Source of the DNA: Candidatus Moraniibacteriota bacterium | Lineage (GTDB): Bacteria > Patescibacteriota > Minisyncoccia > Moranbacterales > UBA1568 | Direction of reading: 5' to 3' | Length of the DNA: 64,000 nt | Assembly (NCBI GenBank): GCA_049287005.1 | Contig: JBAQEZ010000003.1 | Span: 265,745 to 329,744 of the forward strand | In this document: positions 5,353-28,623 of the stretch, piece by piece | How the letters are laid out: the number at the start of each line of letters is the position of its first letter | Position numbering within the stretch: position 1 is the first letter of the stretch | Notes under the pieces: model-generated | Seen by the model: only the letters and a program-made list of their open reading frames with translations | Told to the model about the DNA's origin: nothing | Databases searched by the model: none | Position numbers and translations under genes: made by a program

Positions 5353-5500
5353 TCGTATCCTTTCTTCGTTCAAGCCACAGAAGAGGCGAAAGGAGCATAG
5401 GCTCCTTTTTCTTTTTTTCATCAGTTTGCTATAGTAGGAGCATCTTGAGCCCCGGCTTTCCCAAAAAGCTCATGAAGCTAAAAGCTAAAAAGCTATTCAT

Positions 5501-9743: not shown

Positions 9744-9814
9744 CGGGCTGTAGTATATCGGCAGTACGCGTGCATGGGGTGCACGTAGGCCGGGTTCGAT
9801 TCCCGGCAGCCCGA
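9744..9814 (+). tRNA. tRNA-Pro (anticodon GGG)
   Basis: Folded by hand: a 7-bp acceptor CGGGCTG/CAGCCCG with the bacterial tRNA-Pro-type C1-G72 pair; D stem GTAT/GTAC; anticodon stem CGTGC/GCACG with loop A-T-GGG-G-T (U33, G37); T arm CCGGG-TTCGATT-CCCGG; discriminator A; CCA not encoded. Confidence 0.75.
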
Positions 9815-12589: not shown

Positions 12590-14695
12590 ATGGCCCGAAA
12601 AACCCCGATTGAAAAATATCGTAATATCGGCATCATCGCCCATATCGACGCCGGCAAGACGACGACGACTGAGCGTATTTTGTTCTATACGGGTATCACG
12701 CACAAGATCGGCGAAGTGCATGAGGGAGCGGCTACGATGGACTGGATGGAACAGGAGCAAGAGCGCGGCATTACCATCACTTCCGCTGCGACGACCTGTT
12801 TTTGGAAGGGACATCATATCAATATCATCGATACGCCGGGACACGTGGATTTCACCGTCGAGGTAGAGCGTTCACTGCGCGTACTTGATGGCGGTGTTGT
12901 GGTGTTCGATGGCAAAGAAGGCGTCGAACCACAATCTGAAACCGTGTGGCGTCAAGCCGAGAAATACAACGTGCCTCGCATGTGTTTTATCAACAAAATC
13001 GACAAAGAAGGAGCTGTCTTTGAAGAAGCTCTCGATTCTATTGTGAACCGCCTCACTCCACACGCTGTCGCTATTCAATACCCGATGGGACTTCGCGGTG
13101 ATTTTTTTGGTTTGGTTGATTTGATGACAATGAAGTCCTTTACATTCGAAGGAGAAATGGGAGAAAAAGTAATTGAAGCGGAAATCCCAGCTGAATATCA
13201 GGACAAAGCCAAAGAATGGCGTGAAAAAATGGTAGAGAAAATTTCCGAGACAGACGATGCTTTGACTGAGAAGTATTTAAATGGTGAAGAAATTTCTGTA
13301 ACAGAATTGAAGGCCGCTCTTCGTAGAGCAACTATCAGTGTGAAACTTCACCCAGTCCTTATTGGAACAGCTCTTCGAAATAAGGGTGTGCAGCTTATGC
13401 TCGATGCTGTCGTTGATTATCTCCCATCGCCGATTGATATTCCTCCAGTCGCTTGTATCGATATGAAGACGGACAAAGAGGTGGTACGAGAAACGAGAGA
13501 TGATGAAAAATTCTCGGCGCTGGCTTTCAAGATCGCAACTGATCCGTTCGTCGGACAACTGACATTTTTCCGCGTGTATTCTGGTACCGTGAAAGCCGGA
13601 TCCTATGTGCTCAACTCCAGCAAGAATGAAAAAGAACGTATCGGACGCATTCTCCGTATGCACGCCAATCATCGCGAAGAAATTGAAGAGTTGACAGCGG
13701 GAGATATCGGAGCGCTGGTCGGCATGAAAGCGACTACCACCGGCAATACTCTCTGTGACCTGGATTTTCCAGTGATTCTCGAATCCATCACTTTTCCGGA
13801 ACCGGTTATCGATATTTCTATCGAGCCGAAGACGAAAGTCGATCAAGAGAAGATGGGTGTGGCCTTGAAGAAACTTCTGGAAGAAGATCCGACGTTCCGG
13901 GTGCATACCGACGAAGAAACCGGTCAGACAATCATGTCTGGTATGGGTGAACTCCATCTCGATATTCTTGTCGATCGGATGAAGCGCGAATTCAAGGTAG
14001 AAGTGAATGTCGGTCGTCCGCAGGTAGCCTACCGCGAAACGATTCGTGACAAAGCCGAGTCGGAAGGAAAATATATCCGTCAGTCAGGCGGTCGCGGACA
14101 GTACGGCCATTGTTGGCTGCGTGTCGAACCTCAGGAAGAGCCGGGTATGGGGTATGAGTTTTTGAACGAAGTGAAGGGCGGTGCTATTCCCCAGGAATTC
14201 ATCAAGCCGATCGACAAAGGTGTGCAGGAAGCGATGTTGACCGGCGTGTTGGCAGGCTATCCGATGGTGGATATCAAAGCGACTGTCTATGACGGCTCCT
14301 ATCATGATGTCGACTCGTCCGAAGCGGCTTTCCGTATTGCTGGTTCCATGGCGTTCAAAGAGGCCTGTCGCAAGGCGCGGCCGGTTCTTCTCGAACCGAT
14401 TATGAAAGTAGTTGTTATCACACCGGAGCAGTTTATGGGTGATATCGTAGGGGATATTTCTGCCAAGCGCGGAGTGATCAAAGAAATGAACGCTCGTGGC
14501 GAAGGAACATCCGCAGTGAAAGAAATCCATGCCGAAGTGCCGCTGTCTTCGATGTTCGGCTATGCCACCCAGATGCGTTCCATGTCCCAGGGCCGTGCCA
14601 ACTATTCGATGGAATTTGGTCATTATGCCGAAGTCCCGAACAATGTGGCAACGGAAATTATCGGTTCCCGCACCCCGACAGGGGAGGCGAAGTAG
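12590..14695 (+). CDS. fusA: elongation factor G
   Basis: [19 protein letters not shown] is the G1 motif. It is EF-G over all 701 aa. Confidence 0.97.
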
Positions 14696-14739
14696 GGCGG
14701 AAACTACGAATGAGGAGCCGGGAATTATGCATTATGGCA

Positions 14740-14764
14740 ACCAGCCGCTGTGGCTGGTTTTATT
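14740..14764 (+). terminator. Rho-independent terminator after fusA
   Basis: CCAGCC-gctgt-GGCTGG followed by TTTTATTG. Confidence 0.6.
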
Positions 14765-14840
14765 GTGTTTGTTAAAAAATACTTTAGATAAGCCAGGAGA
14801 GGTTGTGATTTTGCCCGGATTGTGCTATAAATGAAGCATG

Positions 14841-14868
14841 CTGAATCTGTATTCAGGTGTTTTTATTT
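14841..14868 (+). terminator. Second terminator-like hairpin
   Basis: CTGAAT-ctgt-ATTCAG followed by GTGTTTTTATTT. Confidence 0.4.
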
Positions 14869-15096
14869 CCTCTCTCGCATGTATGGTATTGGGCACTGGC
14901 ATTTTCAGGAAAACAAAATTGGCAACTCAGATAAGAAAACTCCGAGCGTAAGTTTGGGGTTTTTATGAATGGGAAAAAATAAAGGAAAACAAGATGGAAA
15001 CGAATGAGGAAAAGTTTTATCAAGAAGATTTTCTAAGGATCAAGAAGATGTATTTTCTAAAATATTTGCAGCATAAAGGCAAATTTTAGCGGGATT

Positions 15097-15741
15097 ATGA
15101 TACGAATAATCAGCGGGGGTAAAAAAATTGTTTGTTCATGCACGGAAGTCGGCATCGCGATGGTGCAAATCGCGACATACATTGCTTTTTCTAGAATTTT
15201 ACGTTATTTTTTTCGGGCTGATCGCAAAGTATCCCGGACGATAAGCCAGCTCAGAAGGGGGTCGCTGATCATTTCTAATCACCAATCGATCTTGGACCCC
15301 TTCATTATTTTGGCGCATTTGCCGACTCGCTCATTCCTCAAAGCGGTGCCTATTCGTTTCCCGGTGACTCACAGCTATTATAAATATCTGCGGTTTTTGG
15401 CTTTATTTGGAGCCTACGATATCGGTGCAGACAAAAGGGAACGGATGCTGGGATTGTTTTATACCCGAGATTTATTAAAATCAGGGGAAAGCGTCATGAT
15501 TTTTCCTGAAGGCAGGATTTGTGCGGCCGGAGAGATGCTGGATTTCCAAAATGGAATCAAATTTCTTACGGATGTCTCTGCTAATGTGGTTTTTGTCAAA
15601 ATGGAAGGATTTTATCAAAAAGACTGGCTGAAATTCCAAATGTTGCGCGGAGTTATTTTCAGCGAAGTCCGATATTTTAATGGAGAACAGGAAGACCCGG
15701 AAAATATCCGGGTGTTGATGAAAAAATTATCAGCTCATTGA
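15097..15741 (+). CDS. PlsC/LPLAT-family acyltransferase (lysophospholipid acyltransferase-like)
   Basis: NHQSILD is the H-x4-D acyltransferase motif and FPEGR is the second PlsC motif. The N-terminus is hydrophobic. Confidence 0.7.
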   Translation: MIRIISGGKKIVCSCTEVGIAMVQIATYIAFSRILRYFFRADRKVSRTISQLRRGSLIISNHQSILDPFIILAHLPTRSFLKAVPIRFPVTHSYYKYLRFLALFGAYDIGADKRERMLGLFYTRDLLKSGESVMIFPEGRICAAGEMLDFQNGIKFLTDVSANVVFVKMEGFYQKDWLKFQMLRGVIFSEVRYFNGEQEDPENIRVLMKKLSAH

Positions 15742-16400
15742 TAGCTAGTATGCACATAGCTATCGCTCAGTCAAAAAATATAAGTCCCAGCTATTTTTCC
15801 AAGTCTGAATTGGATGAATTGGAAAAATTGGCGGATTATAGAAAGGCAGACTGGTTGGCCAGTCGTTTGGCTGTCAAAAAAGCTCTTCGAAGATTTTTTT
15901 CGGAAAACCAAAAAAAAATTGTATTGAATGAGATACGTATAATCAGTCGGAAATCTTCCCGACCATCTTTCGAAGTCAAAGGAAAGAAATATCTAAACAT
16001 CGCTATCAGTTTGGCACATAGCAATGGCATCGGAGTAGGTGCTGTCAGCGAGACAGAATTAATCGGTGTGGATGTCGAAAATATCAGGAAATTTTCCGAA
16101 GAGTTTAAAGCAGGTTTCCTCACCGAAAAGGAGCTCAGGTGGTTCAAGAAAGTGAAAAAGGCTGAGAATGACAGAATAGCGACACTCTTCTGGTGTATCA
16201 AAGAAGCCTACCTGAAGGCGCTCGGCAGGGGGCTTAAAAAACACCCTCGGGAATTGGAAATACGGTCGAAAAATGGTAGTATGAGGTATATTTCTATTCA
16301 AGATAAAGGAATTCTGACCAATGCAACGGTTTCTTGGTCAATAAGCGATGGATATGCTGTGGCGGCCGTAATCATTCATAATGATGAGAGCGATGAATAA
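15738..16400 (+). CDS. 4'-phosphopantetheinyl transferase (Sfp/EntD-type)
   Basis: IGVDVENI matches the G-x-D-x-E motif and WCIKEAYLKALG matches the W/F-x3-KE-A-x2-KA motif. It overlaps the upstream stop. Possible starts are the TTG at 15738 or the ATG at 15750. Confidence 0.7.
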   Translation: MIASMHIAIAQSKNISPSYFSKSELDELEKLADYRKADWLASRLAVKKALRRFFSENQKKIVLNEIRIISRKSSRPSFEVKGKKYLNIAISLAHSNGIGVGAVSETELIGVDVENIRKFSEEFKAGFLTEKELRWFKKVKKAENDRIATLFWCIKEAYLKALGRGLKKHPRELEIRSKNGSMRYISIQDKGILTNATVSWSISDGYAVAAVIIHNDESDE

Positions 16401-16668
16401 GAAAATTTTTGAAATCGTGAAGGGCGTGATTTTCGAAACCTTGCAAGTCGATACCGAAGGAGTGAGTCTGGAAGACAAGATAGAGGATATTTGCCAGGAC
16501 TCCATCCAGATTTTCAGCCTGGTGATGAATTTTGAAAAAAAATTCAACTATAGGATCAATTACGGCGACTTGATAAAAATAGAAACGGTCGGCGATATCG
16601 TCGATCTGGTTGTTCAGTTGGAGGAAAAGGGGGAGATTTCATCTGAGGAGACCAATTTTAAAGGATAA
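16393..16668 (+). CDS. acyl/peptidyl carrier protein
   Basis: About 90 aa and acidic. DSIQIFSLVMNFEKKF fits the D-S-(L/I) phosphopantetheine attachment site at the start of helix 2. Its start overlaps the PPTase stop. Confidence 0.65.
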   Translation: MNKKIFEIVKGVIFETLQVDTEGVSLEDKIEDICQDSIQIFSLVMNFEKKFNYRINYGDLIKIETVGDIVDLVVQLEEKGEISSEETNFKG

Positions 16669-16672
16669 TTAA

Positions 16673-17440
16673 ATGGACATATTGAAAGTAATACTGGTTT
16701 TTTCTCTGATATGCATCCTATCGTTTGCGGTCTTTTTTGTGATTCCATCGGGATTTTTCAAAAACTTTTCGTTTAAGTGGCATTACTATGCCTACTCTTT
16801 CTCTGGGACTCCGGAGAAGATGGACGCGCTGAATAAGGAGAGTATCGATACTTCGCGAACAACCGGAAAGCCGATAACGATCGTGATTCATGGAGCGGAG
16901 ACAACATACTATAAGGATGTGTACGGCACCGTGGTTTGGTTTAAAGAAAATGGAGTAAACGTGGTTTCTTTCGATTATGATTTTAAAGCCGCGCCGGATG
17001 TATCCGCACGAAAATTAAGCGATTTTGTCGATGAAACATTGAAAGAAACCGGCACCAGAAAAGTCAATATCATGGGCACCTGCCTGGGGGGCATACTTGC
17101 AAAGTACTATGCGGAAAATTTCGGAGGGGCGGAGCATATCGATAAGTTGATTACGGTCATTTCTCCGGCCAGACCGATTCCCGAGACTGCGATCGCCTAC
17201 CAGTATGATACATTATTCTCTTTCGATCCGGCGTCATGGAATCAGGTTCTGGCAGGGCTGCAGGATAAGAACCCCGTCAAGGATCATATGTATTTCTACT
17301 GCAAGAATGACATTACGGTGCCGGCAAAGTATCAATTTTCGAGCGTGGGAAATTTTATCGGGTTAGAATGCGAGCACTCTTTCAATAACGTGAATCCGGA
17401 AGTGCTCGAGCCAGCATTGGATTTCATCAATACTCATTAA
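16673..17440 (+). CDS. lipase_2 (LipA)-like alpha/beta hydrolase with Cys in the nucleophile position
   Basis: An N-terminal TM/signal segment is followed by ITIVIHGAE...VNIMGTCLGG. That is the lipase class-2 layout, with G-T-C-L-G in place of G-x-S-x-G. Confidence 0.5.
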   Translation: MDILKVILVFSLICILSFAVFFVIPSGFFKNFSFKWHYYAYSFSGTPEKMDALNKESIDTSRTTGKPITIVIHGAETTYYKDVYGTVVWFKENGVNVVSFDYDFKAAPDVSARKLSDFVDETLKETGTRKVNIMGTCLGGILAKYYAENFGGAEHIDKLITVISPARPIPETAIAYQYDTLFSFDPASWNQVLAGLQDKNPVKDHMYFYCKNDITVPAKYQFSSVGNFIGLECEHSFNNVNPEVLEPALDFINTH

Positions 17441-17459
17441 AATATTATTACACATCAGA

Positions 17460-18200
17460 ATGGAAAGGATACTGGAAAAAGACGAATATACTTCTCCGGT
17501 CAGCGCCGAAGCCTATAGCGATATGGTCGACAAGTACAAATCGATGGTCCATGGCGGATTTGTCGAGCGCATATTGGAACGCGCCGACGATGGGTCAAAA
17601 ATTCTGGATGTCTGCACCGGCCCCGGACAGGTGCCGATCGAATTGGTTGAGAGGGGTGATTTCGAGATTACCGGCCTGGATGTTTCGCGAGAAATGCTGA
17701 ACGTAGCGGAAAGGAACGCTGCGGCCCGGAATGTGAAAGAGAAAATACGTTTTGTTCGGGGGAGTGTCGAACAGAATGATCTGCCAAAAAACTCTTTTGA
17801 TATCGTGGCTTGCTTCAACGCCATGCATCATTTCGAAGACCCTATTTTTCTGTGGCAGAAATTGAGAGCGCTCACGAAGCCGGGAGGAAGCATTTTTCTT
17901 GAGGATCTCGTCCGTCCGTCAGGGTGGCTTATCCCTCTCTATGTCATCGTATTCGGAGGGTTCGACCGGGAAGTTAGGAAACAATATCGCGATTCTTTAT
18001 TGGCGGCTTTATCGAGAAAAGAATGGATGAATCTTTTCGCTTCCGTGAAAAAGAACGACCCAGCGATCCTGAAGACGCATTTCTTGACGCATATGAGCAT
18101 CGTCATGACCGGTTCGAGCAATGCGGTCAAAAAAAATGTGGAAATAGGCTTGGGTGGAAATTTCTTTATCAGGGCCATCAGGGAGATTTTCTACAAATAA
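17460..18200 (+). CDS. class I SAM-dependent methyltransferase
   Basis: ILDVCTGPGQVPIEL is motif I, there is an acidic residue after beta-2, and FNAMHHFEDP is the motif IV region. Confidence 0.7.
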   Translation: MERILEKDEYTSPVSAEAYSDMVDKYKSMVHGGFVERILERADDGSKILDVCTGPGQVPIELVERGDFEITGLDVSREMLNVAERNAAARNVKEKIRFVRGSVEQNDLPKNSFDIVACFNAMHHFEDPIFLWQKLRALTKPGGSIFLEDLVRPSGWLIPLYVIVFGGFDREVRKQYRDSLLAALSRKEWMNLFASVKKNDPAILKTHFLTHMSIVMTGSSNAVKKNVEIGLGGNFFIRAIREIFYK

Positions 18201-18228
18201 CGGGTATTGACACGATTTTACCGGCACT
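18196..18228 (+). promoter_or_regulatory. Shared upstream motif, copy 1 (AAATAACGGGTATTGACACGATTTTACCGGCACT), in front of the exporter genes
   Basis: Near-identical to the reverse complement of 26868-26900, which lies upstream of the ThiF-like gene. It contains TTGACA. Confidence 0.45.
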
Positions 18229-18311
18229 GCGCTTGGGGCCGAAAGGTTGCTTTCGTTTCGCTCGCTTCGTTTGGTAATAAAAATCAGGTTTCAGTTAATG
18301 CTCGTGGTTTT

Positions 18312-19517
18312 ATGAATCATTATGTCAGTCGTTTGAAGATTCTGCTTTCTTTCGCTTTGCGGGATGTCTCCAAGAGCCGGATTATTTTGGTTTTTACCAT
18401 TATGAGCCTGAGTGCCGCGTTCACGGCTGTTTTTGTTTCGGCCGGAGTTTTGGATGGTTTTCAGGCCATGTTGGAGAGAGGATCGATCGATACGGGAGGG
18501 GAGCTGACTATAAAGGCGAAAACCGGGAATGGGGGCATCGAAAATATCGATGATGTGACACGGATTCTGGGTGCTGAAAAAAATATAGCAGGGTATAGTG
18601 TCAGAAGCTATGGCGGCCTGAAAGCAAAAATGGATGGCAAGTATAAGGGGCATGGGTATGCTGCTATCGGTGTCGATCCGATGCAGGAACGGGAGGCGAC
18701 GCAGATACCGGATCGGGTGATTGCCGGCCGTTACCTGCTTCCGGGAGATACGCGCAGCGTGGTGGTCGGTATAACTATGGCGGATTCGCTCAAAGGATTG
18801 CTCTATGACAATCAGGAGGTTCATGTCGGAGATAAGATCAGATTCATCGGACCGTCGAATAATAAGGGCAGAGACTATACTATAGTGGGAATTGCCAGTA
18901 CTAAATATTTTCATCCCGATTGGAGCACCTATTTTCCTAAAAAGGAAATCGAATGGCTGGACAATACGCGTGAGGATAGCGAAATCATCGTGAAACTGAA
19001 AGATCCCGCGCAAATGGATGAAACGAAAAAAAAGTTGCAGCGCTTGTTGCCGTATGCTGAAGTTTTCAATTGGAAGGAAAGAGAAGGCTATATTTTCAAT
19101 ATAGTGACCATGGTCAATTTCATTACCAGTACGATCAGCAATCTGCTTATCATTACCACGTTTGTCATCATGAGCGTGATCATTTTCATCAACGTGCACC
19201 AGCGTCGGCGGCAGATCGCCATCCTCAAGTCCATGGGCGCCAGCAGCCGGTTCGTCGTGGCCATCTATGTCGTACAGACTTTGACGTACTCGCTGTTCTC
19301 ATTCGCGCTGGCTTATCTGACATTTCTTCTGATGCATAGTTTTTCCCTGAACCATCCGATACCGATGCAGATCGGAGATTTTCATACGGTCGTAGTGGAT
19401 AAAAGCATGGCGCAGATGTTCGGGATACTCTTCCTTGCTTCTCTCGTGGGGAGTCTTTTTCCTTCGTATATGGCCGCACGAACCCGTATCGTCGATGTTT
19501 TGCGAAATACGGTTTAG
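18312..19517 (+). CDS. ABC transporter permease, FtsX/MacB-like
   Basis: An N-terminal TM helix, a large extracytoplasmic domain and a C-terminal FtsX 3-TM domain with ILKSMGASSRFVVAIYV. The ATG at 18312 is chosen by homology to the paralog start MSHYLSRL. Confidence 0.8.
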   Translation: MNHYVSRLKILLSFALRDVSKSRIILVFTIMSLSAAFTAVFVSAGVLDGFQAMLERGSIDTGGELTIKAKTGNGGIENIDDVTRILGAEKNIAGYSVRSYGGLKAKMDGKYKGHGYAAIGVDPMQEREATQIPDRVIAGRYLLPGDTRSVVVGITMADSLKGLLYDNQEVHVGDKIRFIGPSNNKGRDYTIVGIASTKYFHPDWSTYFPKKEIEWLDNTREDSEIIVKLKDPAQMDETKKKLQRLLPYAEVFNWKEREGYIFNIVTMVNFITSTISNLLIITTFVIMSVIIFINVHQRRRQIAILKSMGASSRFVVAIYVVQTLTYSLFSFALAYLTFLLMHSFSLNHPIPMQIGDFHTVVVDKSMAQMFGILFLASLVGSLFPSYMAARTRIVDVLRNTV

Positions 19518-19539
19518 AAAAAAATAACAGTTGGTTCTT

Positions 19540-20739
19540 ATGAGTCACTATCTCAGCCGGTTGGGCATCCTTCTCTCCTTCGTATTGCGGGATGTTTCCA
19601 AAAGCCGCTTCGTTCTCATTTTTACGACCATCAGTCTGAGTACCGCTTTTACGGCCGTTTTCCTTTCGGCCGGCATCTTGGAAGGTTTCCAAGTTATGCT
19701 GAAAAGCGGCGCTATAGATACGATGGGTGAAATCGTCATTTATCCGAAAGACGGAGAGACTCACATCGAAAATATCGAATCTATCAGTCAAGAAATCAAA
19801 GATACGGAAAACGTCGAATCATTCAGTGTCAGGGATGTGGGAGAAGCTATCATAGAATATGGCGATACGAAAATCGGTCCTTATGCCACCATGGGTATGG
19901 AGGTTGCGCGAGAAGCATCCGTTACCAAATTGCCCGAGGATATCACAGAGGGAAGATTTTTGAACAACAAAGATTCAAAAAACGTGGTTTTGGGCGCGAC
20001 ACTCGCGGACGCGTTGGTCGGCCTTCAATATGACGGCAGGAGGGTCCCCATCGGTGGCAAGGTCAAGATATCCTCCGGTACCGGTCAGCAGGGAGAATAC
20101 ACTGTTGTCGGTATCCTAGATGGTAAGACATTTGCTCCCAACTGGGTTGTCTATTTCAATAAAGATGAGTTGGACAAGTTCGAACCACGGTATAAAGACA
20201 ACCAGATCGTGGTGAAGCTGAAGGATCCAACGCAGCCCGCAATAACCAAGCAGATTTTGCGGCAAAAAAAATTAGATATGCAGGTTGTGACTTGGCAGGA
20301 TGAGGCCGGATTCATAGCCAATATAGTCTCTGCGACCAAATTCGTGACCGGTTCCATCAGCGGACTTTTGATAATTGCGGTGTTCGTCATCATGAGTGTG
20401 ATTATTTTCATCAATGTCTCCCAGCGTCGGCGGCAGATCGGTATTTTGAAATCCATGGGCGCGAGCAATCGGTTTATCGTGGCCATCTATGTTTTTGAGG
20501 CTTTCACCTACGCTACCATCTCCTTCGCTTTCGGACTCTTGTTTTTCATGCTCATTCATATCCATTCGACCAGCAACCCAATGCATACTCTCATAGGTGA
20601 TTTTCATACTGAATTCAACCCTCAAGATATCGTTCCTTCGCTTATCGTGCTGGTACTGGCTTCAATGGGTGGGAGTTTTTTCCCGGCCCTTTCGGCGGCA
20701 AGAACGCGCATTGCTGATGTCGTTCGTAGCGGTGTATAA
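19540..20739 (+). CDS. ABC transporter permease, FtsX/MacB-like (paralog)
   Basis: Same architecture as the upstream permease, with ILKSMGASNRFIVAIYV. Confidence 0.8.
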   Translation: MSHYLSRLGILLSFVLRDVSKSRFVLIFTTISLSTAFTAVFLSAGILEGFQVMLKSGAIDTMGEIVIYPKDGETHIENIESISQEIKDTENVESFSVRDVGEAIIEYGDTKIGPYATMGMEVAREASVTKLPEDITEGRFLNNKDSKNVVLGATLADALVGLQYDGRRVPIGGKVKISSGTGQQGEYTVVGILDGKTFAPNWVVYFNKDELDKFEPRYKDNQIVVKLKDPTQPAITKQILRQKKLDMQVVTWQDEAGFIANIVSATKFVTGSISGLLIIAVFVIMSVIIFINVSQRRRQIGILKSMGASNRFIVAIYVFEAFTYATISFAFGLLFFMLIHIHSTSNPMHTLIGDFHTEFNPQDIVPSLIVLVLASMGGSFFPALSAARTRIADVVRSGV

Positions 20740-20753
20740 TCATAATTAAGCAT

Positions 20754-21467
20754 ATGGAAATTCTTGCCAGTTTGAAAGATGTTCACAAAGAATATCGGAT
20801 GAGCAAAGTGCTGACCATCCCGGCGCTTAATGGTGTCACTCTGGATATCTTCAAAGGCGAGTTCCTGGCGATTACCGGACATTCCGGCTCCGGAAAGAGC
20901 ACGATGCTGAATATTCTGGGGCTTCTGGACGAACCGACACGCGGCGAGATGTATTTCGCGGGACACGAAGTCCACAATTTTACGGAAAAGCAGAGAGTCG
21001 ATCTGCGTTTGAATACGATGAGTTTTGTGTTTCAGTTTTTCAATCTGATTGACAATTATACGGCGCTGGAAAATATAAAATTCCAGCTGTTCCTGCAGGG
21101 CTGTGGCGGCAGGGAGGCGAATCGTCGATCGCAAGAAATTATTGATTTTTTGGGGCTCAAGGAACGTGCTTCCTTTTTCCCGCACGAGCTTTCCGGCGGC
21201 GAACAGCAGCGAGTGGCTATCGGGCGGGCGCTCGCCAAGGACTCCCTGATCATTATGGCTGATGAACCGACGGCGCATCTGGATTCCGCGAACGGGCAGG
21301 CAACTATCCAGTTATTGCACGATATCAACAAGAAATTCAATCGGACAGTGGTTCTGGTGACGCACGAAGAAGAGGAGGCGCGTCATGCTGATCGCAACGT
21401 GATGATGAGTGACGGAAAAATCTTGGAAATCAAGATACACCAAAAGATTGAAATAAAGCCTGAGTAG
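20754..21467 (+). CDS. ABC transporter ATP-binding protein (MacB/LolD-type)
   Basis: GHSGSGKST is Walker A, LSGGEQQRVAIGRAL is the signature motif, and IIMADEPT is Walker B. Confidence 0.9.
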   Translation: MEILASLKDVHKEYRMSKVLTIPALNGVTLDIFKGEFLAITGHSGSGKSTMLNILGLLDEPTRGEMYFAGHEVHNFTEKQRVDLRLNTMSFVFQFFNLIDNYTALENIKFQLFLQGCGGREANRRSQEIIDFLGLKERASFFPHELSGGEQQRVAIGRALAKDSLIIMADEPTAHLDSANGQATIQLLHDINKKFNRTVVLVTHEEEEARHADRNVMMSDGKILEIKIHQKIEIKPE

Positions 21468-21484
21468 ATGCTATAATTGGAAGT

Positions 21485-23038
21485 ATGCAAGGCAAAAAAA
21501 TAATTCTTACCATTCTGGTACTCGCGTTTTTGGGAGGCGCGGGACTTTTTGTATTTTTGAAATTTACGACAACCGAAAACGCAAAAAATATTTCTCCGGA
21601 AAATGGTAACGGATTTGTTGTCCAGAGTGGTTCTGCCGACCCTTCTGTGGAAGTGGATGACGCAGCACTTGTTCCGAAGGAAGACATGCACCTGGCGTTT
21701 GAGATGGGCGGAAAAATCCAAAAAGTGCTGGTAACGGAAGGACAAAGCGTGAACGAGGGAGATGCCCTGGTACAACTGGATACGACACAGCTGGCTATCG
21801 TCAAACGGCAGGCAGAGGCCGGAGTGAAGCAGGCACGGGCCGGCTTGGATAGATTGATCAATGGACTAACGGTGGCAGATCTCAAAGTCTTGCAAGCTGG
21901 TAAGAAGTCCGCTGATGAGTCGGCCGATGCTTTGCATGGAGGCGTCTTGGACGCCTTGCAGGGTTCTTTCACAGCGGCGGATGACGCAATGCGCGGCAAA
22001 ACGAATGCGCTTTTTACTGATCCGGATGGCGCGGATCCACAATTGAATATCCCGGTTTCTGACAGCAGCCTCGAGTTGGCTATCGAATCGTCTCGCCTCG
22101 AATTGAATACGGATCTGGAGTCTTTCAAAAATCGTGTCAATGGCCTAGGTTCGGGTAGTGATCCGGATAAAGAAACATCTCATGCCAAAGATTTTCTCAA
22201 TGAAGTGGCTAGTTATCTGACGAATGTAGCCAAGGCAGTGGATATACTGACGACTGCAGACGGTCTTACTCAAGACGAAATCGATGCCTTGAATGTGGCG
22301 GTTTCTACTGGTCGGGGAGAAGTGGATACAGCCAAAGCCGCCCTGGCCAAGGGATTGGCAAAGTTCAGCTTAGCGAATGGGGCATTTTCAGTAGCCACGA
22401 AGGATTATAAATCGAAAACGGTCGGACCGCGGCCGGAAGATATCGCGGTTGCGACCGCGCAAGTAGATGTGGCACGCGACCAGCTGAGCCTGGTAAATGA
22501 ACAGATAGCGAAAACTATATTAATTGCACCACATGCCGGAATGGTGAGTAAGATATGGTTCAAGGAAGGAGAAATTGATCCAGCTGGCCAGCCGGTCATC
22601 TCTTTTCGTAGTTCAGAAATGAAGATCCAGGCTGACGTGCCGGAAGAGGATATTTTGAAAGTTGCTATTGGTTCAGCTGCACGCGTAAAATTCAAAGCAT
22701 TGGTGCAGACAGTTTTTTTCGGAAAAGTCGACGCTATCGAAGCTCATGAAATCAACAAAGATGGGGATGTTTATTATCGCGTAGATATCGGGTCGTCGGA
22801 CTTTAACCCGCCTTTGCGTTCAGGTATGACCGCAGACGTGTTCATTGATTCGGCAGAGCAAGATAGTGCCATCAAGATTCCCTCAAGCTATGTCAGCTGG
22901 CGCGCCGGCCGTAGTTATGTTACGGTTGTAAATGCCGGTAAACGGCAAGAGGTCGAGGTCGAAACCGGAGCGACTGACGGAGACTCCACTGAGATCAGCA
23001 GCGGACTACAGGAAGGTCAGCAGCTCCTTTCGCCCTAA
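21485..23038 (+). CDS. HlyD-family periplasmic adaptor (membrane fusion protein)
   Basis: An N-terminal TM helix; the biotin/lipoyl-like hairpin GGKIQKVLVTEGQSVNEGDALVQLDTT; a long helical segment; a C-terminal beta-barrel. Confidence 0.75.
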   Translation: MQGKKIILTILVLAFLGGAGLFVFLKFTTTENAKNISPENGNGFVVQSGSADPSVEVDDAALVPKEDMHLAFEMGGKIQKVLVTEGQSVNEGDALVQLDTTQLAIVKRQAEAGVKQARAGLDRLINGLTVADLKVLQAGKKSADESADALHGGVLDALQGSFTAADDAMRGKTNALFTDPDGADPQLNIPVSDSSLELAIESSRLELNTDLESFKNRVNGLGSGSDPDKETSHAKDFLNEVASYLTNVAKAVDILTTADGLTQDEIDALNVAVSTGRGEVDTAKAALAKGLAKFSLANGAFSVATKDYKSKTVGPRPEDIAVATAQVDVARDQLSLVNEQIAKTILIAPHAGMVSKIWFKEGEIDPAGQPVISFRSSEMKIQADVPEEDILKVAIGSAARVKFKALVQTVFFGKVDAIEAHEINKDGDVYYRVDIGSSDFNPPLRSGMTADVFIDSAEQDSAIKIPSSYVSWRAGRSYVTVVNAGKRQEVEVETGATDGDSTEISSGLQEGQQLLSP

Positions 23039-23112
23039 GAGACTTTTGAGCAGACACTGAGAACAGTAGATTATTGAAGGAGCTGTCTTTTAAATTATCT
23101 GAATCTTATCGT

Positions 23113-24201
23113 ATGTTTCATTTTTTATACGTCCATATTTTCAGAAGAATAGTTTTTTTGCTTGATCCTGAAAAAGTGCATGATGGCATAGTGATGTTTG
23201 GAAGGAATTTGGGCAAATATAGTCTCACAAGGAAGATGACCAGAAGCCTATTGAGTTATCAGAACCAGGCTCTTTCGCAAACGGTAAGAGGAATACATTT
23301 CTCTAATCCGGTCGGGCTTTCAGGTGGCTTCGACAAGAATGCTGAGCTGACTGATATTATTCCGGAGGTTGGTTTTGGCTTTATGGAAATCGGTTCGGTC
23401 ACTGGAGAAAAATGTGATGGCAATGCAAAGCCGCGGTTGTGGCGACTCAAAAAATCCAAAAGTATCCTGGTCTATTATGGTTTGAACAATGATGGTGCCG
23501 AAGCTATTGCTCAAAGGTTGCGGGGAAAAAAGTTCAGGATTCCCGTCGGTGCCAATATCGCTAAGACGAATAATCAGAATACGGTAGGGAAAGAAGCCGG
23601 CGCAGCCGATTATTTGAAAGCTTATAAAGCGATGCAGGACATAGCTGATTATTTTACGATCAATATCAGCTGTCCGAATGCCTATGGCGGCTGCCCGTTT
23701 ACGGACAAAGAGTATCTGGATCATTTATTGTCGAGACTTGCAGAAGTTCCCAAGACAAAGCCGAGCTTTATCAAGCTCTCGCCCGATCTTTCGCATGAAG
23801 AAATCGACGGTATCATCGAGGTGGCCAGAAAACACGATATCGATGGGTTCGTTTGTTCGAATCTGACCAAGAGCCGCAACAATCCGAAGATCGTAGAAAA
23901 AGATTTTTCTGAATGTGGAGGGATGAGTGGAAAAGTAGTCATAGATCTTTCCAATGATCTCGTCGAGTATATTTATCGGAAAACAGGGAAAGAGTTCGTG
24001 CTCATCGGCCTAGGCGGTATTTTTTCCGCCGAGGATGCGTATAAGAAAATCCGTCTGGGCGCAACCTTGGTGGAACTGATAACGGGCATGATTTTTGAAG
24101 GCCCTCAGGTGATCGGTGATATCAATCAGGGGCTGGTAAAATTGTTAAAAAAAGATGGCTTCAAGAATATTTCCGAGGCAATTGGTGCCGATATCAGATA
24201 A
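23113..24201 (+). CDS. pyrD: dihydroorotate dehydrogenase-like flavoenzyme (class-2-type N-terminus)
   Basis: LDPEKVHDGIV is the class-2 N-terminal region. GFGFMEIGSVT, GLNNDG and NISCPN (Cys where class 2 has the catalytic Ser) also fit. GGIFSAEDAYKKIRLGATLVEL closes the FMN site. Confidence 0.75.
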   Translation: MFHFLYVHIFRRIVFLLDPEKVHDGIVMFGRNLGKYSLTRKMTRSLLSYQNQALSQTVRGIHFSNPVGLSGGFDKNAELTDIIPEVGFGFMEIGSVTGEKCDGNAKPRLWRLKKSKSILVYYGLNNDGAEAIAQRLRGKKFRIPVGANIAKTNNQNTVGKEAGAADYLKAYKAMQDIADYFTINISCPNAYGGCPFTDKEYLDHLLSRLAEVPKTKPSFIKLSPDLSHEEIDGIIEVARKHDIDGFVCSNLTKSRNNPKIVEKDFSECGGMSGKVVIDLSNDLVEYIYRKTGKEFVLIGLGGIFSAEDAYKKIRLGATLVELITGMIFEGPQVIGDINQGLVKLLKKDGFKNISEAIGADIR

Positions 24202-24211
24202 GATACGTCTT

Positions 24212-24868
24212 ATGCAGATTGATTTTTGTCGGGCTCGCTGTGATGCTGATCAACAGGGTGCGTTCGATCTTGTTTCAGAGGAATATAAGAAGGACGGATA
24301 TATCGATGTTGACGCCCGTCCGGACATCCCTGTCTATAATTTTTTGCTGACCTCGGCAACTTTTATCGCTAAGGCTGATAAGACAATAATCGGAACGGTG
24401 ACAATCGTTGGTGATGGGGAAAAAGGCTTGCCCATGGAAAATATCTATGAGGAAGAAATCGGGGAGCTGCGTTGGTCTGGAAAAAAAATGGCGGAAATCT
24501 CGCAATTAGCAATCAAGCGCGGAACGGCTGAAAATCCGGATATGCATCAAAGAAAAATCCAGACGAGCATTCCGCTTGCCCTCTTCAGGGTCGTTTATTT
24601 TTTTGCGAAAAGCCAGGGTATCGGGAATTTCTGTATCGCCATCAATCCGAAGCATGAAACTTTTTATAAATTACTCGGCTTCGAAGACATCGGTGGATTG
24701 AAAAGCTATTCTTTTGTCAACGGTGCTCCAGCTTTGGCCAGGATGTTGGACATCACGCAGGATCCCAAAGTACTGGCAGAAAAAAGCTTTATTTTTGATG
24801 AGATAATAAAAAATCCGCTGACGGCAGGGGATTTTGAACAAGCAATCATTTTTTCGCAAGAAATCTAG
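24212..24868 (+). CDS. putative GNAT-fold N-acyltransferase (FeeM/OlsB/autoinducer-synthase-like)
   Basis: About 218 aa. The call rests on overall residue pattern and size only; it is not motif-proven. Confidence 0.35.
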   Translation: MQIDFCRARCDADQQGAFDLVSEEYKKDGYIDVDARPDIPVYNFLLTSATFIAKADKTIIGTVTIVGDGEKGLPMENIYEEEIGELRWSGKKMAEISQLAIKRGTAENPDMHQRKIQTSIPLALFRVVYFFAKSQGIGNFCIAINPKHETFYKLLGFEDIGGLKSYSFVNGAPALARMLDITQDPKVLAEKSFIFDEIIKNPLTAGDFEQAIIFSQEI

Positions 24869-25938
24869 ACATTCTTCATAATTTTCTCGATTGCTTTTCT
24901 GCCGGAAACGGCGGATGGGCCTTTGGCATAGCCCAAACGGAAAAGAGCGACTGGAGTTTCGTTTTTCAGGTTTGGAAACGTTGCGTGAAAAAAATCAGCA
25001 ATCTCATTTTGTATCCGTTGATACTTCGGAGAGAGACCTCCTCGGGATAAGCGCTGGTTGAGTATCAGACACAGCGTTCCGAAAAGCGGTTGCATAAAGA
25101 TATTTTTCGTCGTCAGATATAGCCAGATGGCTTGCATTGCTCGTCCTCCTCCGAGGTAGGTGTGTGGATGGTGATCCTTGGAGTATGTTATGAAGGCGAG
25201 CGCTCCGGATCTTTTCACGTTTTGACTAGTATGTATCACTGAACCGACCCCCATGACTTTCCAAAGAAGCTTGATCTTTTCTGCCAGATAGATGGTCGGT
25301 TTGAAAAAATGCTTTTTCAGCCCGAGTTCTAGGCTTTCTAAGGGCAAGCCGACGACGGCCTGTTCATTTTTTTCAAAGCTGACCATGCGTAGCAGGTTAT
25401 CGCGTAAAGCCTTATCTCCCCAAAGTATGTAGTCATGAATACCTATGATTCGAGAAAATTGTTTGATGATTTGTGGATCTTCAATCCAACACAGATGGGC
25501 GCCTTTCGCTTCGGCCAAGGCTTGGAGCTTATTTTTGATATCTCTGGCTATTTTTTTCGTCGAGTAAGCGCGACGGTTCGTTTTTCGCTTGGCGAGAGAA
25601 TCAAGCAGATCTGATGAATAAGGATCGTGGGTTTTTTTGAGTTCGATTTTTGCTATAGGATGAGCACTTTCAAAAAAATTGATTTCTGGCGTGTATCCCA
25701 AGTGATGCGCCTGTACGTGCATGTTTTCGATGACCGCTCCTAAGCTGACATAATCAGCGAAAAAATCGATATTGTACAAATGATTGGCAGCCGTATGTTC
25801 CACGTCATGATGCACATAAATCGCATTTTCTTCAACGGTAAAAAACCACGGCTGGGAGTTATCCGCAGACGGTGAAAGTCGACCGGCCTCGATTATTTTC
25901 TGAATATTTTCTTTCATTTTCAAAATCTCAGTCATCAC
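24865..25938 (-). CDS. tandem nitroreductase-fold flavin oxidoreductase (SagB/ThcOx-like dehydrogenase candidate)
   Basis: The N-terminal half AGRLSPSADNSQPWFF is a nitroreductase FMN motif. The second half begins RRAYSTKKI, typical of a second nitroreductase-like subdomain. Confidence 0.55.
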   Translation of the reverse strand: MMTEILKMKENIQKIIEAGRLSPSADNSQPWFFTVEENAIYVHHDVEHTAANHLYNIDFFADYVSLGAVIENMHVQAHHLGYTPEINFFESAHPIAKIELKKTHDPYSSDLLDSLAKRKTNRRAYSTKKIARDIKNKLQALAEAKGAHLCWIEDPQIIKQFSRIIGIHDYILWGDKALRDNLLRMVSFEKNEQAVVGLPLESLELGLKKHFFKPTIYLAEKIKLLWKVMGVGSVIHTSQNVKRSGALAFITYSKDHHPHTYLGGGRAMQAIWLYLTTKNIFMQPLFGTLCLILNQRLSRGGLSPKYQRIQNEIADFFHATFPNLKNETPVALFRLGYAKGPSAVSGRKAIEKIMKNV

Positions 25939-25965
25939 ATAAGGCGGGGCACCGTGAATAGTCGT

Positions 25966-26838
25966 TTAGAGACGGCCGCGAGATTTCAGGACTGAAGTCA
26001 TAATGATTCGTTTCAGGCGCTGGATCGGATTCTTGTTACCGAAAGGCACCCAGACCCTTTTGAGTTTTTTCAGGTATGGATCAAAGTGCAAGGATGCCGG
26101 TGCCGAGCGTACTTTTTCTCCGAAGATAATTTTCAGGGCTTCGCAGGAAACAAGGTTGGCGCATAAGAGGGTTCCCGTGACCAACGAGGGAGCCTTTCTT
26201 TCTTTCCAATTGACAGCATCCGGATTGAAATAAGATCTTTGAAGCAAGGTGGGAGTCAGTCCGAGACCGAAGCGTACGAGCATCTCTTCTTTTGTCTGGC
26301 TATCTTCAAGATCGAAATATTCATCGAAGCGCATTCCCTGTGGGTTGAAGACGAGCATGGAAGAACCGAAGCCGACGGGTCCGGCCGTGAGGGCGAAGAG
26401 GCCGCGCTTCTGTGACTCTCGAAACAGCATCCGCCGGGTCGCGATACTGAAGAAGTCTATTCCATCCAAAACAATATCGGTATTATCCAGAAACTCCGCG
26501 ATATTCTCATCGTGGATGCCTTTGGGAAAGGCGGTCACTTTTGCGTAGGGATTGATCGCGAGGATCATGTTTTTTATCACCTCGGTTTTCGGTTTTCCGG
26601 CAGTCTCTATCGTTGATCCGGCCTGGCGATTCATATTGCCCACTTCGAAAACATCGAGATCGGCAATATGAAAATTTCCGAATCCCAGGCGAGCGAAAGT
26701 GGTCGCATAGATCCCGCCTGCGCCTCCCAGCCCGGCTATGGCGACTGTACTCTCTCGGAGCTTCTCTTGCTGTTCGTCCGTCAGAAGGCCCTTATTCCGT
26801 GAAAAGGCTTCCTGATAAAAGCGTAATGATTCGTCCAT
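25966..26838 (-). CDS. ThiF/MoeB/HesA-family E1-like adenylyltransferase
   Basis: IAGLGGAGGIYATTFARLGFGNFHIADLDVFEVGNMNRQ is a Rossmann-type nucleotide loop plus the E1 NRQ motif. The start is placed at MDESL (26838). The ORF-track start at 26892 would run through the shared upstream motif. Confidence 0.75.
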   Translation of the reverse strand: MDESLRFYQEAFSRNKGLLTDEQQEKLRESTVAIAGLGGAGGIYATTFARLGFGNFHIADLDVFEVGNMNRQAGSTIETAGKPKTEVIKNMILAINPYAKVTAFPKGIHDENIAEFLDNTDIVLDGIDFFSIATRRMLFRESQKRGLFALTAGPVGFGSSMLVFNPQGMRFDEYFDLEDSQTKEEMLVRFGLGLTPTLLQRSYFNPDAVNWKERKAPSLVTGTLLCANLVSCEALKIIFGEKVRSAPASLHFDPYLKKLKRVWVPFGNKNPIQRLKRIIMTSVLKSRGRL

Positions 26839-26867
26839 AGCGATAAGGTTAATAGCTTTATTACCAA

Positions 26868-26900
26868 ACGAGTGCCGGTAAAATCGGGTCAATACCCGTT
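26868..26900 (-). promoter_or_regulatory. Shared upstream motif, copy 2 (reverse complement AAATAACGGGTATTGACCCGATTTTACCGGCACT)
   Basis: It matches 18196-18228 except at one position (A/C, right after TTGAC). It lies upstream of the ThiF-like gene. Confidence 0.45.
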
Positions 26901-27248
26901 ATTTTAGAATCTTGCGACTATCTGGTAGTGCGGAAAAGTATAGATAGACCGTCTTAAAAAATCATGGTATCGCAAAATCATACCAAATGCAATTTCAATG
27001 TATTGCCAAACCATTCGAATGATAAATAACGCAACTGTTTTTCAGGAAAATGCTCTTTATAGTGCTATTCCCTATGTCAAAGGTATGAGGGAAATCACTC
27101 TATATATTATACAAAATATACGTGAGAAGCGCCATCTCAGAACTTCAAGTGAGGGTTACCAATCGGCCTAAGTCTATTGTTATATTTTCTGACTTCAATT
27201 AACAATTCAGGAGACTAAAGACTAGGATGATACAGCGGGCCGAGAACC

Positions 27249-27277
27249 TTGACAGATATTTCGTCAGCTGTTATTAT
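27249..27277 (+). promoter_or_regulatory. sigma70-type promoter upstream of tuf (TTGACA-17-TATTAT)
   Basis: TTGACA at 27249-27254, a 17-nt spacer, TATTAT at 27272-27277. Confidence 0.4.
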
Positions 27278-27432
27278 TCTCAGTGATGCTTTTACCCAAG
27301 CTTTTTTCATTTTTGTTTGGAAAAACTTTGGAGCGAAAAGAACATTTTTGAGTAAAAAATAATTCGTAATTATTAGGAGAGCACGGATACTTTACGGAAC
27401 GTAAAGGCACGCGCAATCATACGATAAAAGTT

Positions 27433-28623
27433 ATGGCAGAGCAATTTGACCGCAGCAAGCCCCATGTAAACGTCGGTACAATTGGCCACGTTGACCACGG
27501 CAAAACAACCTTGACCGCCGCTATTTTGCATGTCCAGCATTTCTTGGGCATGGCGAAAGAAAAGGGTATCGACGAAATCGACAAGGCTCCAGAAGAGCGC
27601 GAGCGCGGTATCACTATCGCGACAGCTCATTGTGAGTATGAAACTGAAAAGCGTCATTACGCGCATGTTGATTGCCCTGGTCACGCTGACTATATCAAGA
27701 ACATGATTACGGGTGCCGCTCAGATGGACGGTGCTATCCTCGTGGTCTCTGCTACTGATGGTCCGATGCCGCAGACACGTGAGCATATCCTCTTGGCTCG
27801 CCAGGTAGGTGTGCCGGCTATCGTTGTTTTTTTGAACAAGGTAGACATGGTGGATGACGCGGAACTCATTGAGCTCGTGGAAGCTGAAGTGCGCGAACTC
27901 CTTTCCAAATATGAATTTGATGGCGATAAGGCGGTTATCATTCGTGGCAGCGCTTTGAAAGCTTTGGAATCGAAATCAGCTGATGATGCTGATGCCAAGC
28001 CGATTCTTGATCTCATGAAGGCTATCGATGAAAACATTCCACAGCCAGTGCGTGATCTGGACAAGCCGTTCCTCCTCCCGATCGAAGATATTTTCTCGAT
28101 TGAAGGTCGTGGTACGGTAGTGACTGGTCGTATCGAGCGCGGTATCGTGAATGTCGGTGACGAAGTGGAAATCGTCGGTCTCCGTGATACTGCCAAGACG
28201 GTGGTAACGGGTATCGAAATGTTCAACAAATCTCTGAATCGCGGTGAATGTGGTGATAATGCCGGTATCCTGATTCGTGGTATCAAGAAGGAAGATGTCG
28301 AGCGCGGTCAGGTTTTGGCCAAGCCAGGTTCCATCACTCCGCATACGGAATTTGATAGCGAAGTCTATGTGTTGTCCAAAGAAGAAGGTGGACGCCACAC
28401 TCCGTTTTTCAAAGGATACAAACCGCAGTTTTATATTCGCACCACTGACGTGACTGGCGAAGTAGAATTGCCGGAAGGCACTGAAATGGTGATGCCGGGT
28501 GACACTGTGAAGCTCAAGATCAAGCTTTTGGCACCTGTGGCCATGGAAGAAGGGATGCGCTTCGCCATTCGTGAAGGTGGCCGTACGGTCGGTGCCGGCG
28601 TCGCAACCAAGATTTTGAAATAG
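27433..28623 (+). CDS. tuf: elongation factor Tu
   Basis: [27 protein letters not shown] and NKVDMVDD are the G1, G3 and G4 motifs. Confidence 0.97.

Follow-up and report, generated by a model that had tools for sequence, protein, structure and literature searches.

What a ThiF/E1-like adenylating enzyme and a tandem-nitroreductase flavoprotein, encoded side by side on the minus strand of a Candidatus Moraniibacteriota (Patescibacteria) contig, act on is the question raised by the locus described here. The window is the whole stretch of 64,000 nucleotides that was analysed (contig JBAQEZ010000003.1 of assembly GCA_049287005.1, positions 265,745 to 329,744), and all coordinates below refer to it unless a related locus is named. 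An initial annotation, made from the letters alone, had taken the pair for the accessory half of the machinery that forms thiazoles and oxazoles in ribosomally synthesised, post-translationally modified peptides (RiPPs). Both open reading frames (ORFs) were confirmed where it had placed them. We propose instead, with a probability of about 70%, that the two proteins form a TyzB/TyzC-type oxazolone synthetase split over two genes, where OxzB and TrzS are single fused enzymes, and that their substrate is a small lipid and not a peptide. Homology, folds, motifs and gene neighbourhoods from our own analysis form the basis of this proposal, and its core three-step chemistry is taken from the literature.

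In Pseudoalteromonas rubra, OxzA, an N-acyltransferase, and OxzB, in which ThiF and nitroreductase are fused, produce N-acyl tyrosine-derived oxazolones, the tyrazolones; the OxzA/OxzB system is also present in other proteobacteria (bioRxiv 10.1101/2020.06.11.147165). According to a 2025 review, no ThiF-like enzyme other than OxzB is known to have a small-molecule substrate (PMC12596934). [quoted passage not shown] TrzA and TrzS (Rv1356c and Rv1355c) form another such pair, in which TrzS is a fused tryptazolone synthetase whose D217A substitution abolishes cyclisation and whose R540A substitution abolishes desaturation (PMC12856293). Finally, clusters of a synthase (NasY), a ThiF protein and a nitroreductase, with or without a methyltransferase, have been linked to N-acyl-2,3-dehydrotyrosines, namely the stieleriacines and the thalassotalic and kyonggic acids, and occur in Planctomycetes (PMC12479983). 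One alternative listed in the initial annotation comes close to the published mechanism (PMC10404671, PMC12856293, bioRxiv 10.1101/2020.06.11.147165): an E1 activating an aminolipid carboxylate, beside a flavoenzyme that desaturates or oxidises.

The ThiF and flavoprotein genes form an operon, with the flavoprotein gene downstream on the same strand after a gap of 27-48 nt, depending on its start. An alternative GTG start would extend that gene to 24865-25938, although the ATG at 25917 seems the likelier one, in agreement with the NCBI protein call and the alignment of homologues. When we compared the ThiF product, which is 100% identical to a 290-aa protein of a metagenome-assembled genome (MAG) in NCBI, with family models, Pfam ThiF matched its residues 15-261 of 290 at 7.9e-43. 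Among the NCBIfam models, it exceeded the cutoff set for the standalone family PRK08223 (348.7 bits vs 266, 2e-104) and matched the N-terminal half of PRK14851 (303.5 bits, 2.3e-90), but it stayed under every ThiF/MoeB/MoeZ/TcdA equivalog cutoff (for example 96.6 vs 159 and 73.6 vs 266) and gave no match to ocin_ThiF_like at E<=0.1. The profiles thus place it in the PRK08223/PRK14851 type and not with the ocin_ThiF_like, MoeB or ThiF classes. Its adenylation motifs, a GLGGAGG loop and NMNRQ with the arginine of NRQ, aligned to those of Escherichia coli ThiF, and the aspartate of its VLDGID motif, the Mg-ATP aspartate, aligned to that of VLDCTD. It has two cysteines in total and no CxxC zinc site; the protein consists of the ThiF domain only, with no rhodanese or other sulfur-transfer domain, N-terminal peptide clamp or RiPP recognition element (RRE) extension. 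The predicted structure, with a predicted local distance difference test score (pLDDT) of 95, has the fold of AclA (9EGB), E. coli ThiF, MoeB, PaaA and MccB. The best fold neighbour is PDB 9EGB, 'AclA in complex with substrate' from Tenacibaculum discolor (2025). A literature search on AclA turned up no relevant paper; its chemistry might bear on small-molecule ThiF enzymes.

The flavoprotein, like the ThiF protein, is 100% identical to a protein of a 'Candidatus Moraniibacteriota' MAG, and it gave only short N-terminal matches with the Pfam nitroreductase model. It spans residues 371-719 of the 722-residue NCBIfam Rv1355c family (167.9 bits, 3e-49) and matches the C-terminal half of PRK14851 at 1.5e-44; the Acg family model matched at 1.3e-33, under its cutoff (116.8 vs 199), and the protein scores better on the ThiF-fused FDO-A models than on the Acg family. 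Since the ThiF protein and the flavoprotein match the two halves of the same fused NCBIfam models, we read them as a split version of the known ThiF-nitroreductase fusion. The assignment to SagB/McbC-type dehydrogenases in the initial annotation fell when the profile that it named, TIGR03605, gave no match at E<=0.1 in NCBIfam, and NfsB-type models matched marginally (E 0.0019) over the N-terminal 33 residues only. Its description of two nitroreductase subdomains in one chain was correct: the AlphaFold model (pLDDT 91) had a single full-length match in the PDB, MsAcg 2YMV, with template modelling (TM) scores of 0.71/0.76, while ordinary dimeric nitroreductases covered about half of it (TMq ~0.4). 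The motifs PSxDNxQPW and RxxNR are invariant in the alignment of homologues. On its predicted structure, the flavoprotein is a single-chain pseudo-dimeric nitroreductase of the Acg/FDO type and not of the SagB type.

The partner that completes the trio is a FeeM-type N-acyl amino acid synthase, whose gene converges on the pair. A palindromic CTAG at 24865-24868 carries the stop codons of both the flavoprotein and the FeeM genes, which gives the 4-bp convergent overlap that had been noted from the letters; the overlapping stops were also found in L001-L003 and L007 (L numbers are our labels for retrieved loci), that is, in the closest relatives. The FeeM ORF can be extended to 24155, and its product also matches the N-terminal region of PRK14852 (8e-14). 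The window therefore holds a ThiF protein with adenylation motifs, an FDO nitroreductase encoded next to it and an adjacent FeeM-fold synthase, which are the components by which we recognise the pathway. All three belong to a 12.5-kb island (14696-27432) that lies between fusA (12590-14695) and tuf (27433-28623), and the pair stands at its right-hand end, as the initial annotation had rightly concluded. The genes fusA and tuf are normally found together in the str operon and are here split by the island, which has a GC content of 44-46% against 49-50% in the flanks.

To place the trio among its relatives we relied on two scans. A scan of a genome collection seeded with the flavoprotein alignment yielded 80 loci, annotated with purpose-built hidden Markov models (HMMs), and a metagenome scan with the FeeM alignment yielded 15, enough for patterns and not for statistics. 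In the 80 flavoprotein loci, ThiF was fused to the flavoprotein in 18, lay within 300 bp in 38 and within 3 kb in 12, and was farther away in 4, which makes 72 loci with ThiF; it was absent from 8, several of which are truncated contigs. In 26 of the 80 loci we also detected a homologue of FeeM; these are mainly from Desulfobacterota, Nitrospirota, Omnitrophota, Planctomycetota, Methylomirabilota and Elusimicrobia. In the clade closest to the window flavoprotein (window, L001-L003, L005-L010, L093 and L107), its gene is always beside FeeM and always accompanied by a gene for a homologue of dihydroorotate dehydrogenase (DHODH). In L093, the nitroreductase gene beside FeeM (5031-5900 of that locus) is split into ORFs of 55 and 225 aa, either as a pseudogene or by sequencing error. 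Two further sequencing runs (L107 and L108) independently gave the order ThiF, oxidase, convergent FeeM and DHODH-like gene, which is therefore not an assembly artefact.

The ThiF homologues fell into three tiers. Those 50-67% identical to the window ThiF occur in clusters with a PlsC-like acyltransferase, a 4'-phosphopantetheinyl transferase (PPTase), an acyl carrier protein (ACP) and FeeM. The second tier (40-50%, full length) comes from Desulfobacterota, Nitrospirota, Omnitrophota and Planctomycetes and is made up of ThiF genes or domains that stand beside a nitroreductase, or are fused with one, in classical FeeM-ThiF-nitroreductase clusters. The third (23-38%) comprises long ThiFs (~373 aa) with a nitroreductase partner, as found in most of the remaining Patescibacteria; FeeM was not detected there. 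These third-tier pairs (L025-L085) come from Paceibacterota, Saccharibacteria, Doudna-, Magasanik- and Kaiserbacteria, have the Acg-like nitroreductase gene directly after ThiF and carry ahead of the ThiF domain an N-terminal extension of ~95 aa, which could be a peptide-binding domain; one of them (L076, 8859-11056) is flanked by genes for an unknown 515-aa protein and a histidine kinase with seven transmembrane helices.

Following the published chemistry, the convergent FeeM-type synthase would N-acylate an amino acid, its donor being an acyl thioester probably held on the ACP of the island after activation by the island PPTase. The ThiF protein would then use ATP to adenylate the N-acyl amino acid at its free alpha-carboxylate, and attack of the amide oxygen on the acyl-adenylate would close a 5(4H)-oxazolone. 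In a third step, the Acg-like flavin mononucleotide (FMN) oxidase would take two hydrogens across C-alpha/C-beta, giving an unsaturated oxazolone, whose hydrolysis would yield an N-acyl-2,3-dehydro amino acid. Tailoring of the product may fall to the methyltransferase, the PlsC-like acyltransferase, the alpha/beta hydrolase and a DHODH-like flavoenzyme of the Cys type, and the FtsX-FtsX-ABC-HlyD transporter would export it or insert it in the envelope. Within this scheme, we infer which amino acid and acyl chain are used, in what order the steps run, the tailoring roles and the export. Its core function is already explained by a known pathway; what is new is the phylum, the modularity of ThiF, the atypical DHODH-like enzyme, the ACP/PPTase/PlsC module and the exporter. 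A full-text search of a limited literature collection found no paper on Patescibacteria with N-acyl amino acid synthases or oxazolones.

Several observations weigh against the oxazolone synthetase and account for the remaining doubt. The chemistry of the trio in this clade is predicted from systems of other lineages, and the likeness to OxzB, TyzB and TyzC was drawn through NCBIfam models and the literature, not by direct sequence alignment. The flavoprotein is only 25-35% identical to most of its relatives: in an exhaustive HMMER search, 3348 cluster representatives were related to it, of which 46 reached E<=1e-30 and two only exceeded 40% identity, so that its clade must be small and divergent. 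The nearest ThiFs of matching architecture are likewise only 40-50% identical to that of the window. In this lineage ThiF is tied to PlsC, PPTase and ACP and not to the flavoprotein. Indeed, the clusters with the closest ThiF homologues (63-67%; L089-L091) contain FeeM, PlsC, PPTase, ACP and exporter genes and no nitroreductase or DHODH-like gene, and around the nearest flavoprotein homologue (64%, in L001) ThiF is missing from the 6.5 kb on one flank and the 10 kb on the other. Lastly, no oxazolone was observed with the stieleriacines and related acids, for which the role of ThiF has been called enigmatic (PMC12479983).

The association of ThiF with the carrier module is the starting point of the alternative that survives best, in which ThiF would load the island ACP in the manner of an E1, adenylating an N-acyl amino acid or a scavenged fatty acid and passing it as a thioester to the phosphopantetheine thiol. 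The PlsC/Aas-like acyltransferase would then move the acyl group to an acceptor lipid, the whole being a split, E1-based analogue of the bifunctional Aas, with the flavoprotein and the DHODH-like enzyme set apart as an optional module for desaturation. Wherever a close-clade locus allowed both to be assessed, ThiF and PlsC-PPTase-ACP were either present together or missing together: all four genes occur in the window, in the contig P0005 and in L009, L010, L089-L091 and L097-L102, and none of the four in the retrieved flanks of L001. In L009, L010 and the P0005 contig, ThiF stands directly beside PlsC at the distal end of the cluster, the two genes overlap or abut (L009 17086/17089; L101 2941/2944), and a compact ThiF-PlsC-PPTase-ACP-FeeM operon, with ThiF first, recurs in L097-L102. 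No ANL-type acyl-ACP synthetase was found in the island with Pfam or NCBIfam, which leaves ThiF as its only ATP-dependent activator of carboxylates, and the best NCBIfam matches of the PlsC-like protein are the acyltransferase domains of acyl-[ACP]--phospholipid O-acyltransferases of the Aas type (9e-13). Patescibacteria generally lack fatty-acid synthesis, to our knowledge, and their genomes are described as streamlined and metabolically limited.

However, we know of no ThiF-family enzyme that loads the phosphopantetheine of a carrier protein, and this lack of precedent counts against an ACP loader. The co-occurrence may merely reflect a single operon inherited as a unit, and FeeM-type synthases need acyl-ACP, which already accounts for the ACP and the PPTase. 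Moreover, full-length ThiF homologues at 40-50% identity work beside nitroreductases without an ACP, and PlsC is present in none of those loci. We therefore regard ACP loading as an unlikely role for this ThiF. Slightly less probable again is the version in which ThiF was recruited in this Patescibacteria lineage as an ATP-dependent ACP loader feeding PlsC-type transfer, with the oxidase and DHODH-like genes as a swappable desaturation module. If true, ACP loading would give a host-dependent bacterium deficient in fatty-acid synthesis a self-contained route to an exported aminolipid, and ThiF would become the first demonstrated case of an E1-like enzyme that charges the prosthetic group of a carrier protein.

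A RiPP pathway, in which the E1-like protein would serve for docking or adenylation beside a SagB/McbC-type dehydrogenase of a thiazole/oxazole-modified microcin (TOMM) or other system with its YcaO and precursor encoded elsewhere, fares much worse. RiPP pathways do include ThiF-like proteins and members of the nitroreductase family (PMC12596934), the ThiF model resembles PaaA and MccB too, and a 19-aa ORF in the spacer before tuf (27226-27285), which had been offered as a precursor-like candidate, has a C-terminal tail rich in Cys, Ser and Tyr. Against this stand the absent SagB and ocin_ThiF_like matches, the Acg/FDO type of the flavoprotein, the missing N-terminal clamp of ~100 aa with which MccB and PaaA bind peptides, and a conserved partner that is an N-acyl amino acid synthase. 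No YcaO was matched in the scanned plausible coding ORFs of the window (~250 aa or more), as the initial annotation had also found. As to the 19-aa ORF, it overlaps a near-consensus TTGACA-17-TATTAT site (27249-27277), which is preceded by a TG and lies about 155 nt ahead of tuf, and is best read as part of a predicted tuf promoter region; since the matching pathway requires no peptide either, we rejected it as a precursor. No tRNA or Rfam element was found in the 540-bp spacer between ThiF and tuf, the sole RNA match in the window being a tRNA-Pro at 9744. The RiPP reading, and with it the claim that the pair is half of a thiazole/oxazole machinery, thus appears largely refuted by profile classification and is very improbable.

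The weakest alternative, a housekeeping ThiF/MoeB sulfur-carrier adenylyltransferase for thiamin or molybdopterin beside an unrelated NfsA/B-type nitroreductase, is suggested by the many homologues annotated as 'molybdopterin/thiamine biosynthesis adenylyltransferase' and by the MoeW label of TyzB itself (PMC10404671), but we rule it out as hardly credible, given scores far under all ThiF/MoeB/MoeZ equivalog cutoffs, the missing zinc CxxC pairs and rhodanese domain, the marginal NfsB-type match, and the absence from the island of a gene for a ThiS/MoaD-like beta-grasp partner.

The coordinates of the island genes are collected in Table 1, together with a duplicated element described below.

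Table 1. Genes and duplicated element of the island between fusA and tuf, with coordinates in the window.
Feature	Position	Strand	Remarks
PlsC/Aas-type acyltransferase	15097-15741	plus	Pfam Acyltransferase 1.9e-11
Sfp/HetI-type PPTase	15738-16400	plus	Pfam ACPS 3.1e-20; TIGR00556
Dedicated ACP	16393-16668	plus	DSI phosphopantetheine motif; NCBIfam ACP subfamily 6.5e-15; recurs in relatives
Alpha/beta hydrolase, thioesterase- or lipase-like	16673-17440	plus	Pfam Abhydrolase_1 8e-06; Palm_thioest weak
Class I S-adenosylmethionine (SAM) methyltransferase	17460-18200	plus	Pfam Methyltransf_25 4.5e-21
Duplicated element, copy B	18195-18228 + 18267-18281	plus	Between methyltransferase stop and FtsX-1 start
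MacB/LolCE-type FtsX permease 1	18313-19517	plus	Pfam MacB_PCD + FtsX; TIGR02212 lolCE 1.9e-28
MacB/LolCE-type FtsX permease 2	19531-20739	plus	Pfam FtsX 3.9e-18
Exporter ATP-binding cassette (ABC) ATPase	20754-21467	plus	Pfam ABC_tran 1.9e-30
HlyD/YknX-type membrane-fusion adaptor of exporter	21485-23038	plus	Pfam HlyD_D23 + HlyD_3; TIGR01730 1.2e-39
Class-2-like DHODH homologue	23074-24201	plus	Pfam DHO_dh 4e-64; Cys for Ser at catalytic-base position (NISCPNAYGGCPF)
FeeM-type N-acyl amino acid synthase (putative OxzA/TyzA/NasY role)	24212-24868	plus	Pfam FeeM PF21926 3.5e-30
Tandem-nitroreductase flavoprotein (Acg-like oxidase)	24865-25917	minus	350 aa from ATG at 25917
ThiF/E1-like adenylating enzyme	25966-26838	minus	290 aa; homologue of TyzB / OxzB-N-domain-type cyclases
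Duplicated element, copy A	26857-26904	minus	18-66 nt before ThiF ATG

The DHODH-like flavoenzyme has a peculiar combination of features. It scored above the cutoffs of quinone-type PyrD (NF003652, 352.9 vs 267; TIGR01036, 299.9 vs 200). Class 2 DHODHs use a Ser catalytic base in an N-x-S-S-P-N-T motif, and class 1 enzymes use Cys. When we aligned the window protein to rat DHODH, we found a change from Ser to Cys at the base position (window motif NISCPNA), so that the protein lacks the Ser base of class 2. This cysteine is kept in all cluster-linked homologues, although L001 has SCPS instead of SCPN and has thus lost the following Asn. The DHODH-like gene always adjoins FeeM in related clusters, and it was found in every retrieved locus that has a close-clade oxidase beside FeeM and an available flank. 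The chemistry of DHODH is a C-alpha/C-beta desaturation of the ring formed from an N-acylated aspartate. Because this reaction resembles the desaturation of an N-acyl amino acid, a role as a second desaturase or as a reductase on the lipid is plausible by analogy, and the protein possibly belongs to a new subfamily that acts on lipids and not to the pyrimidine enzymes.

Within the close clade, only the window and the contigs of the same species, L107 and L108, have ThiF immediately upstream of the flavoprotein. The region in front of this ThiF shares a sequence with that in front of the first FtsX gene, and the upstream motif that had been reported as common to both is indeed there: the two copies have 34 nt in common, with 33 of 34 identical, plus 15 identical nt, and the two parts are separated by a 38-nt insert in copy B. 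A -35-like TTGAC(A/C) is present without a properly spaced -10. As no further copy was found in the window and none in 106 related loci, we rejected a conserved regulatory element; the duplicated sequence could be an operator or promoter, or a scar of ThiF relocation. The unique placement of ThiF and the presence in its leader of a sequence that also stands ahead of the exporter genes would fit a recent relocation within the locus or the duplication of a promoter.

The sites occupied by related clusters differ: secE-nusG-rplK-rplA in L001 and L089, rnhB-rpmF-nusB in the P0005 contig and an integrase in L005. The cluster is therefore mobile and tends toward operons of translation genes. Among the accessory genes, that of the alpha/beta hydrolase recurs in L005, L007, L009, L010 and L089. 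The two FtsX permease genes (18207-20739) are a tandem duplication whose DNA identity is still 71-73% over 185-245 nt; the first ORF opens at 18207, and its ATG at 18313 was chosen by alignment with the second permease. Immediately upstream of ThiF in L090 (9429-10004) and L091 (3917-4480), we observed a gene for a protein of ~190 aa without a Pfam match, in which an LHWIAIxGYxD...FYVYD motif looks papain- or C39-like by eye; it has no homologue in the window. Outside the island, the gene of ribosomal protein S5 is followed 24 nt on by that of L15 (37464-38432), with no L30 gene between them, which is consistent with Patescibacteria, a radiation from which L30 is typically absent. A 375-aa ORF (46625-47752) directly after GAPDH, in a run of TIM, aldolase and GAPDH genes, occupies the place where phosphoglycerate kinase might be expected and had no Pfam match at E<=1e-4.

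If the oxazolone synthetase reading holds, a plausible mis-annotation is corrected, and a ThiF gene beside a nitroreductase without YcaO would point to the chemistry of oxazolone or N-acyl-dehydroamino-acid lipids and not to an orphan RiPP or a 'MoeB'. The pathway would here have its own carrier protein, PPTase, acyltransferase and exporter, placed between fusA and tuf. An N-acyl amino acid derivative that is exported or inserted in the envelope would be a candidate mediator of the contact between episymbiont and host. The division into modules, with ThiF going with PlsC-PPTase-ACP and the oxidase with the DHODH-like gene, bears on the 'enigmatic' role of ThiF in producers of N-acyl-dehydrotyrosines as well as on a possible new DHODH-like subfamily.

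Among known systems, TyzABC is close to the window. Both have three separate proteins, a FeeM-fold N-acyltransferase, a ThiF of ~300 aa and an Acg-like FDO nitroreductase of ~350-370 aa, with ThiF and the oxidase in one operon, the acyltransferase gene adjacent on the opposite strand and a transporter nearby. However, TyzA depends on acyl-CoA, whereas the island has its own ACP and PPTase; the window adds a PlsC-like acyltransferase, the Cys-type DHODH-like enzyme, a methyltransferase, a hydrolase and a MacB-type exporter; and an actinobacterial host is replaced by a Patescibacteria MAG. With OxzAB and TrzAS, the window has in common a ThiF cyclase together with an FDO nitroreductase, and an N-acyltransferase as their partner, its two proteins corresponding to the halves of PRK14851 and PRK07877, but in those systems the domains are fused (~680-720 aa) and co-directional with the acyltransferase, in contrast to two genes that converge on it. 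The stieleriacine-type clusters likewise bring together synthase, ThiF, nitroreductase and methyltransferase, and an end product like N-acyl-2,3-dehydrotyrosine is plausible for the window too, although ACP, PPTase, PlsC, DHODH-like enzyme and MacB exporter have not been reported from them. The TOMM systems (SagB/McbC with an ocin-ThiF-like protein) are related to the window only at the level of broad superfamilies, in that they too have an E1-like fold and an FMN dehydrogenase with the nitroreductase fold, and differ by the SagB and ocin-ThiF profiles, YcaO, precursor peptide and peptide-binding domain that the window lacks. Acg/Rv3131, an FDO-B protein of the DosR regulon, shares with the window flavoprotein the single-chain pseudo-dimeric nitroreductase fold seen in MsAcg (2YMV), but FDO-B proteins have no link to ThiF or N-acyltransferases (PMC10404671), the two partners beside which the window flavoprotein is encoded.

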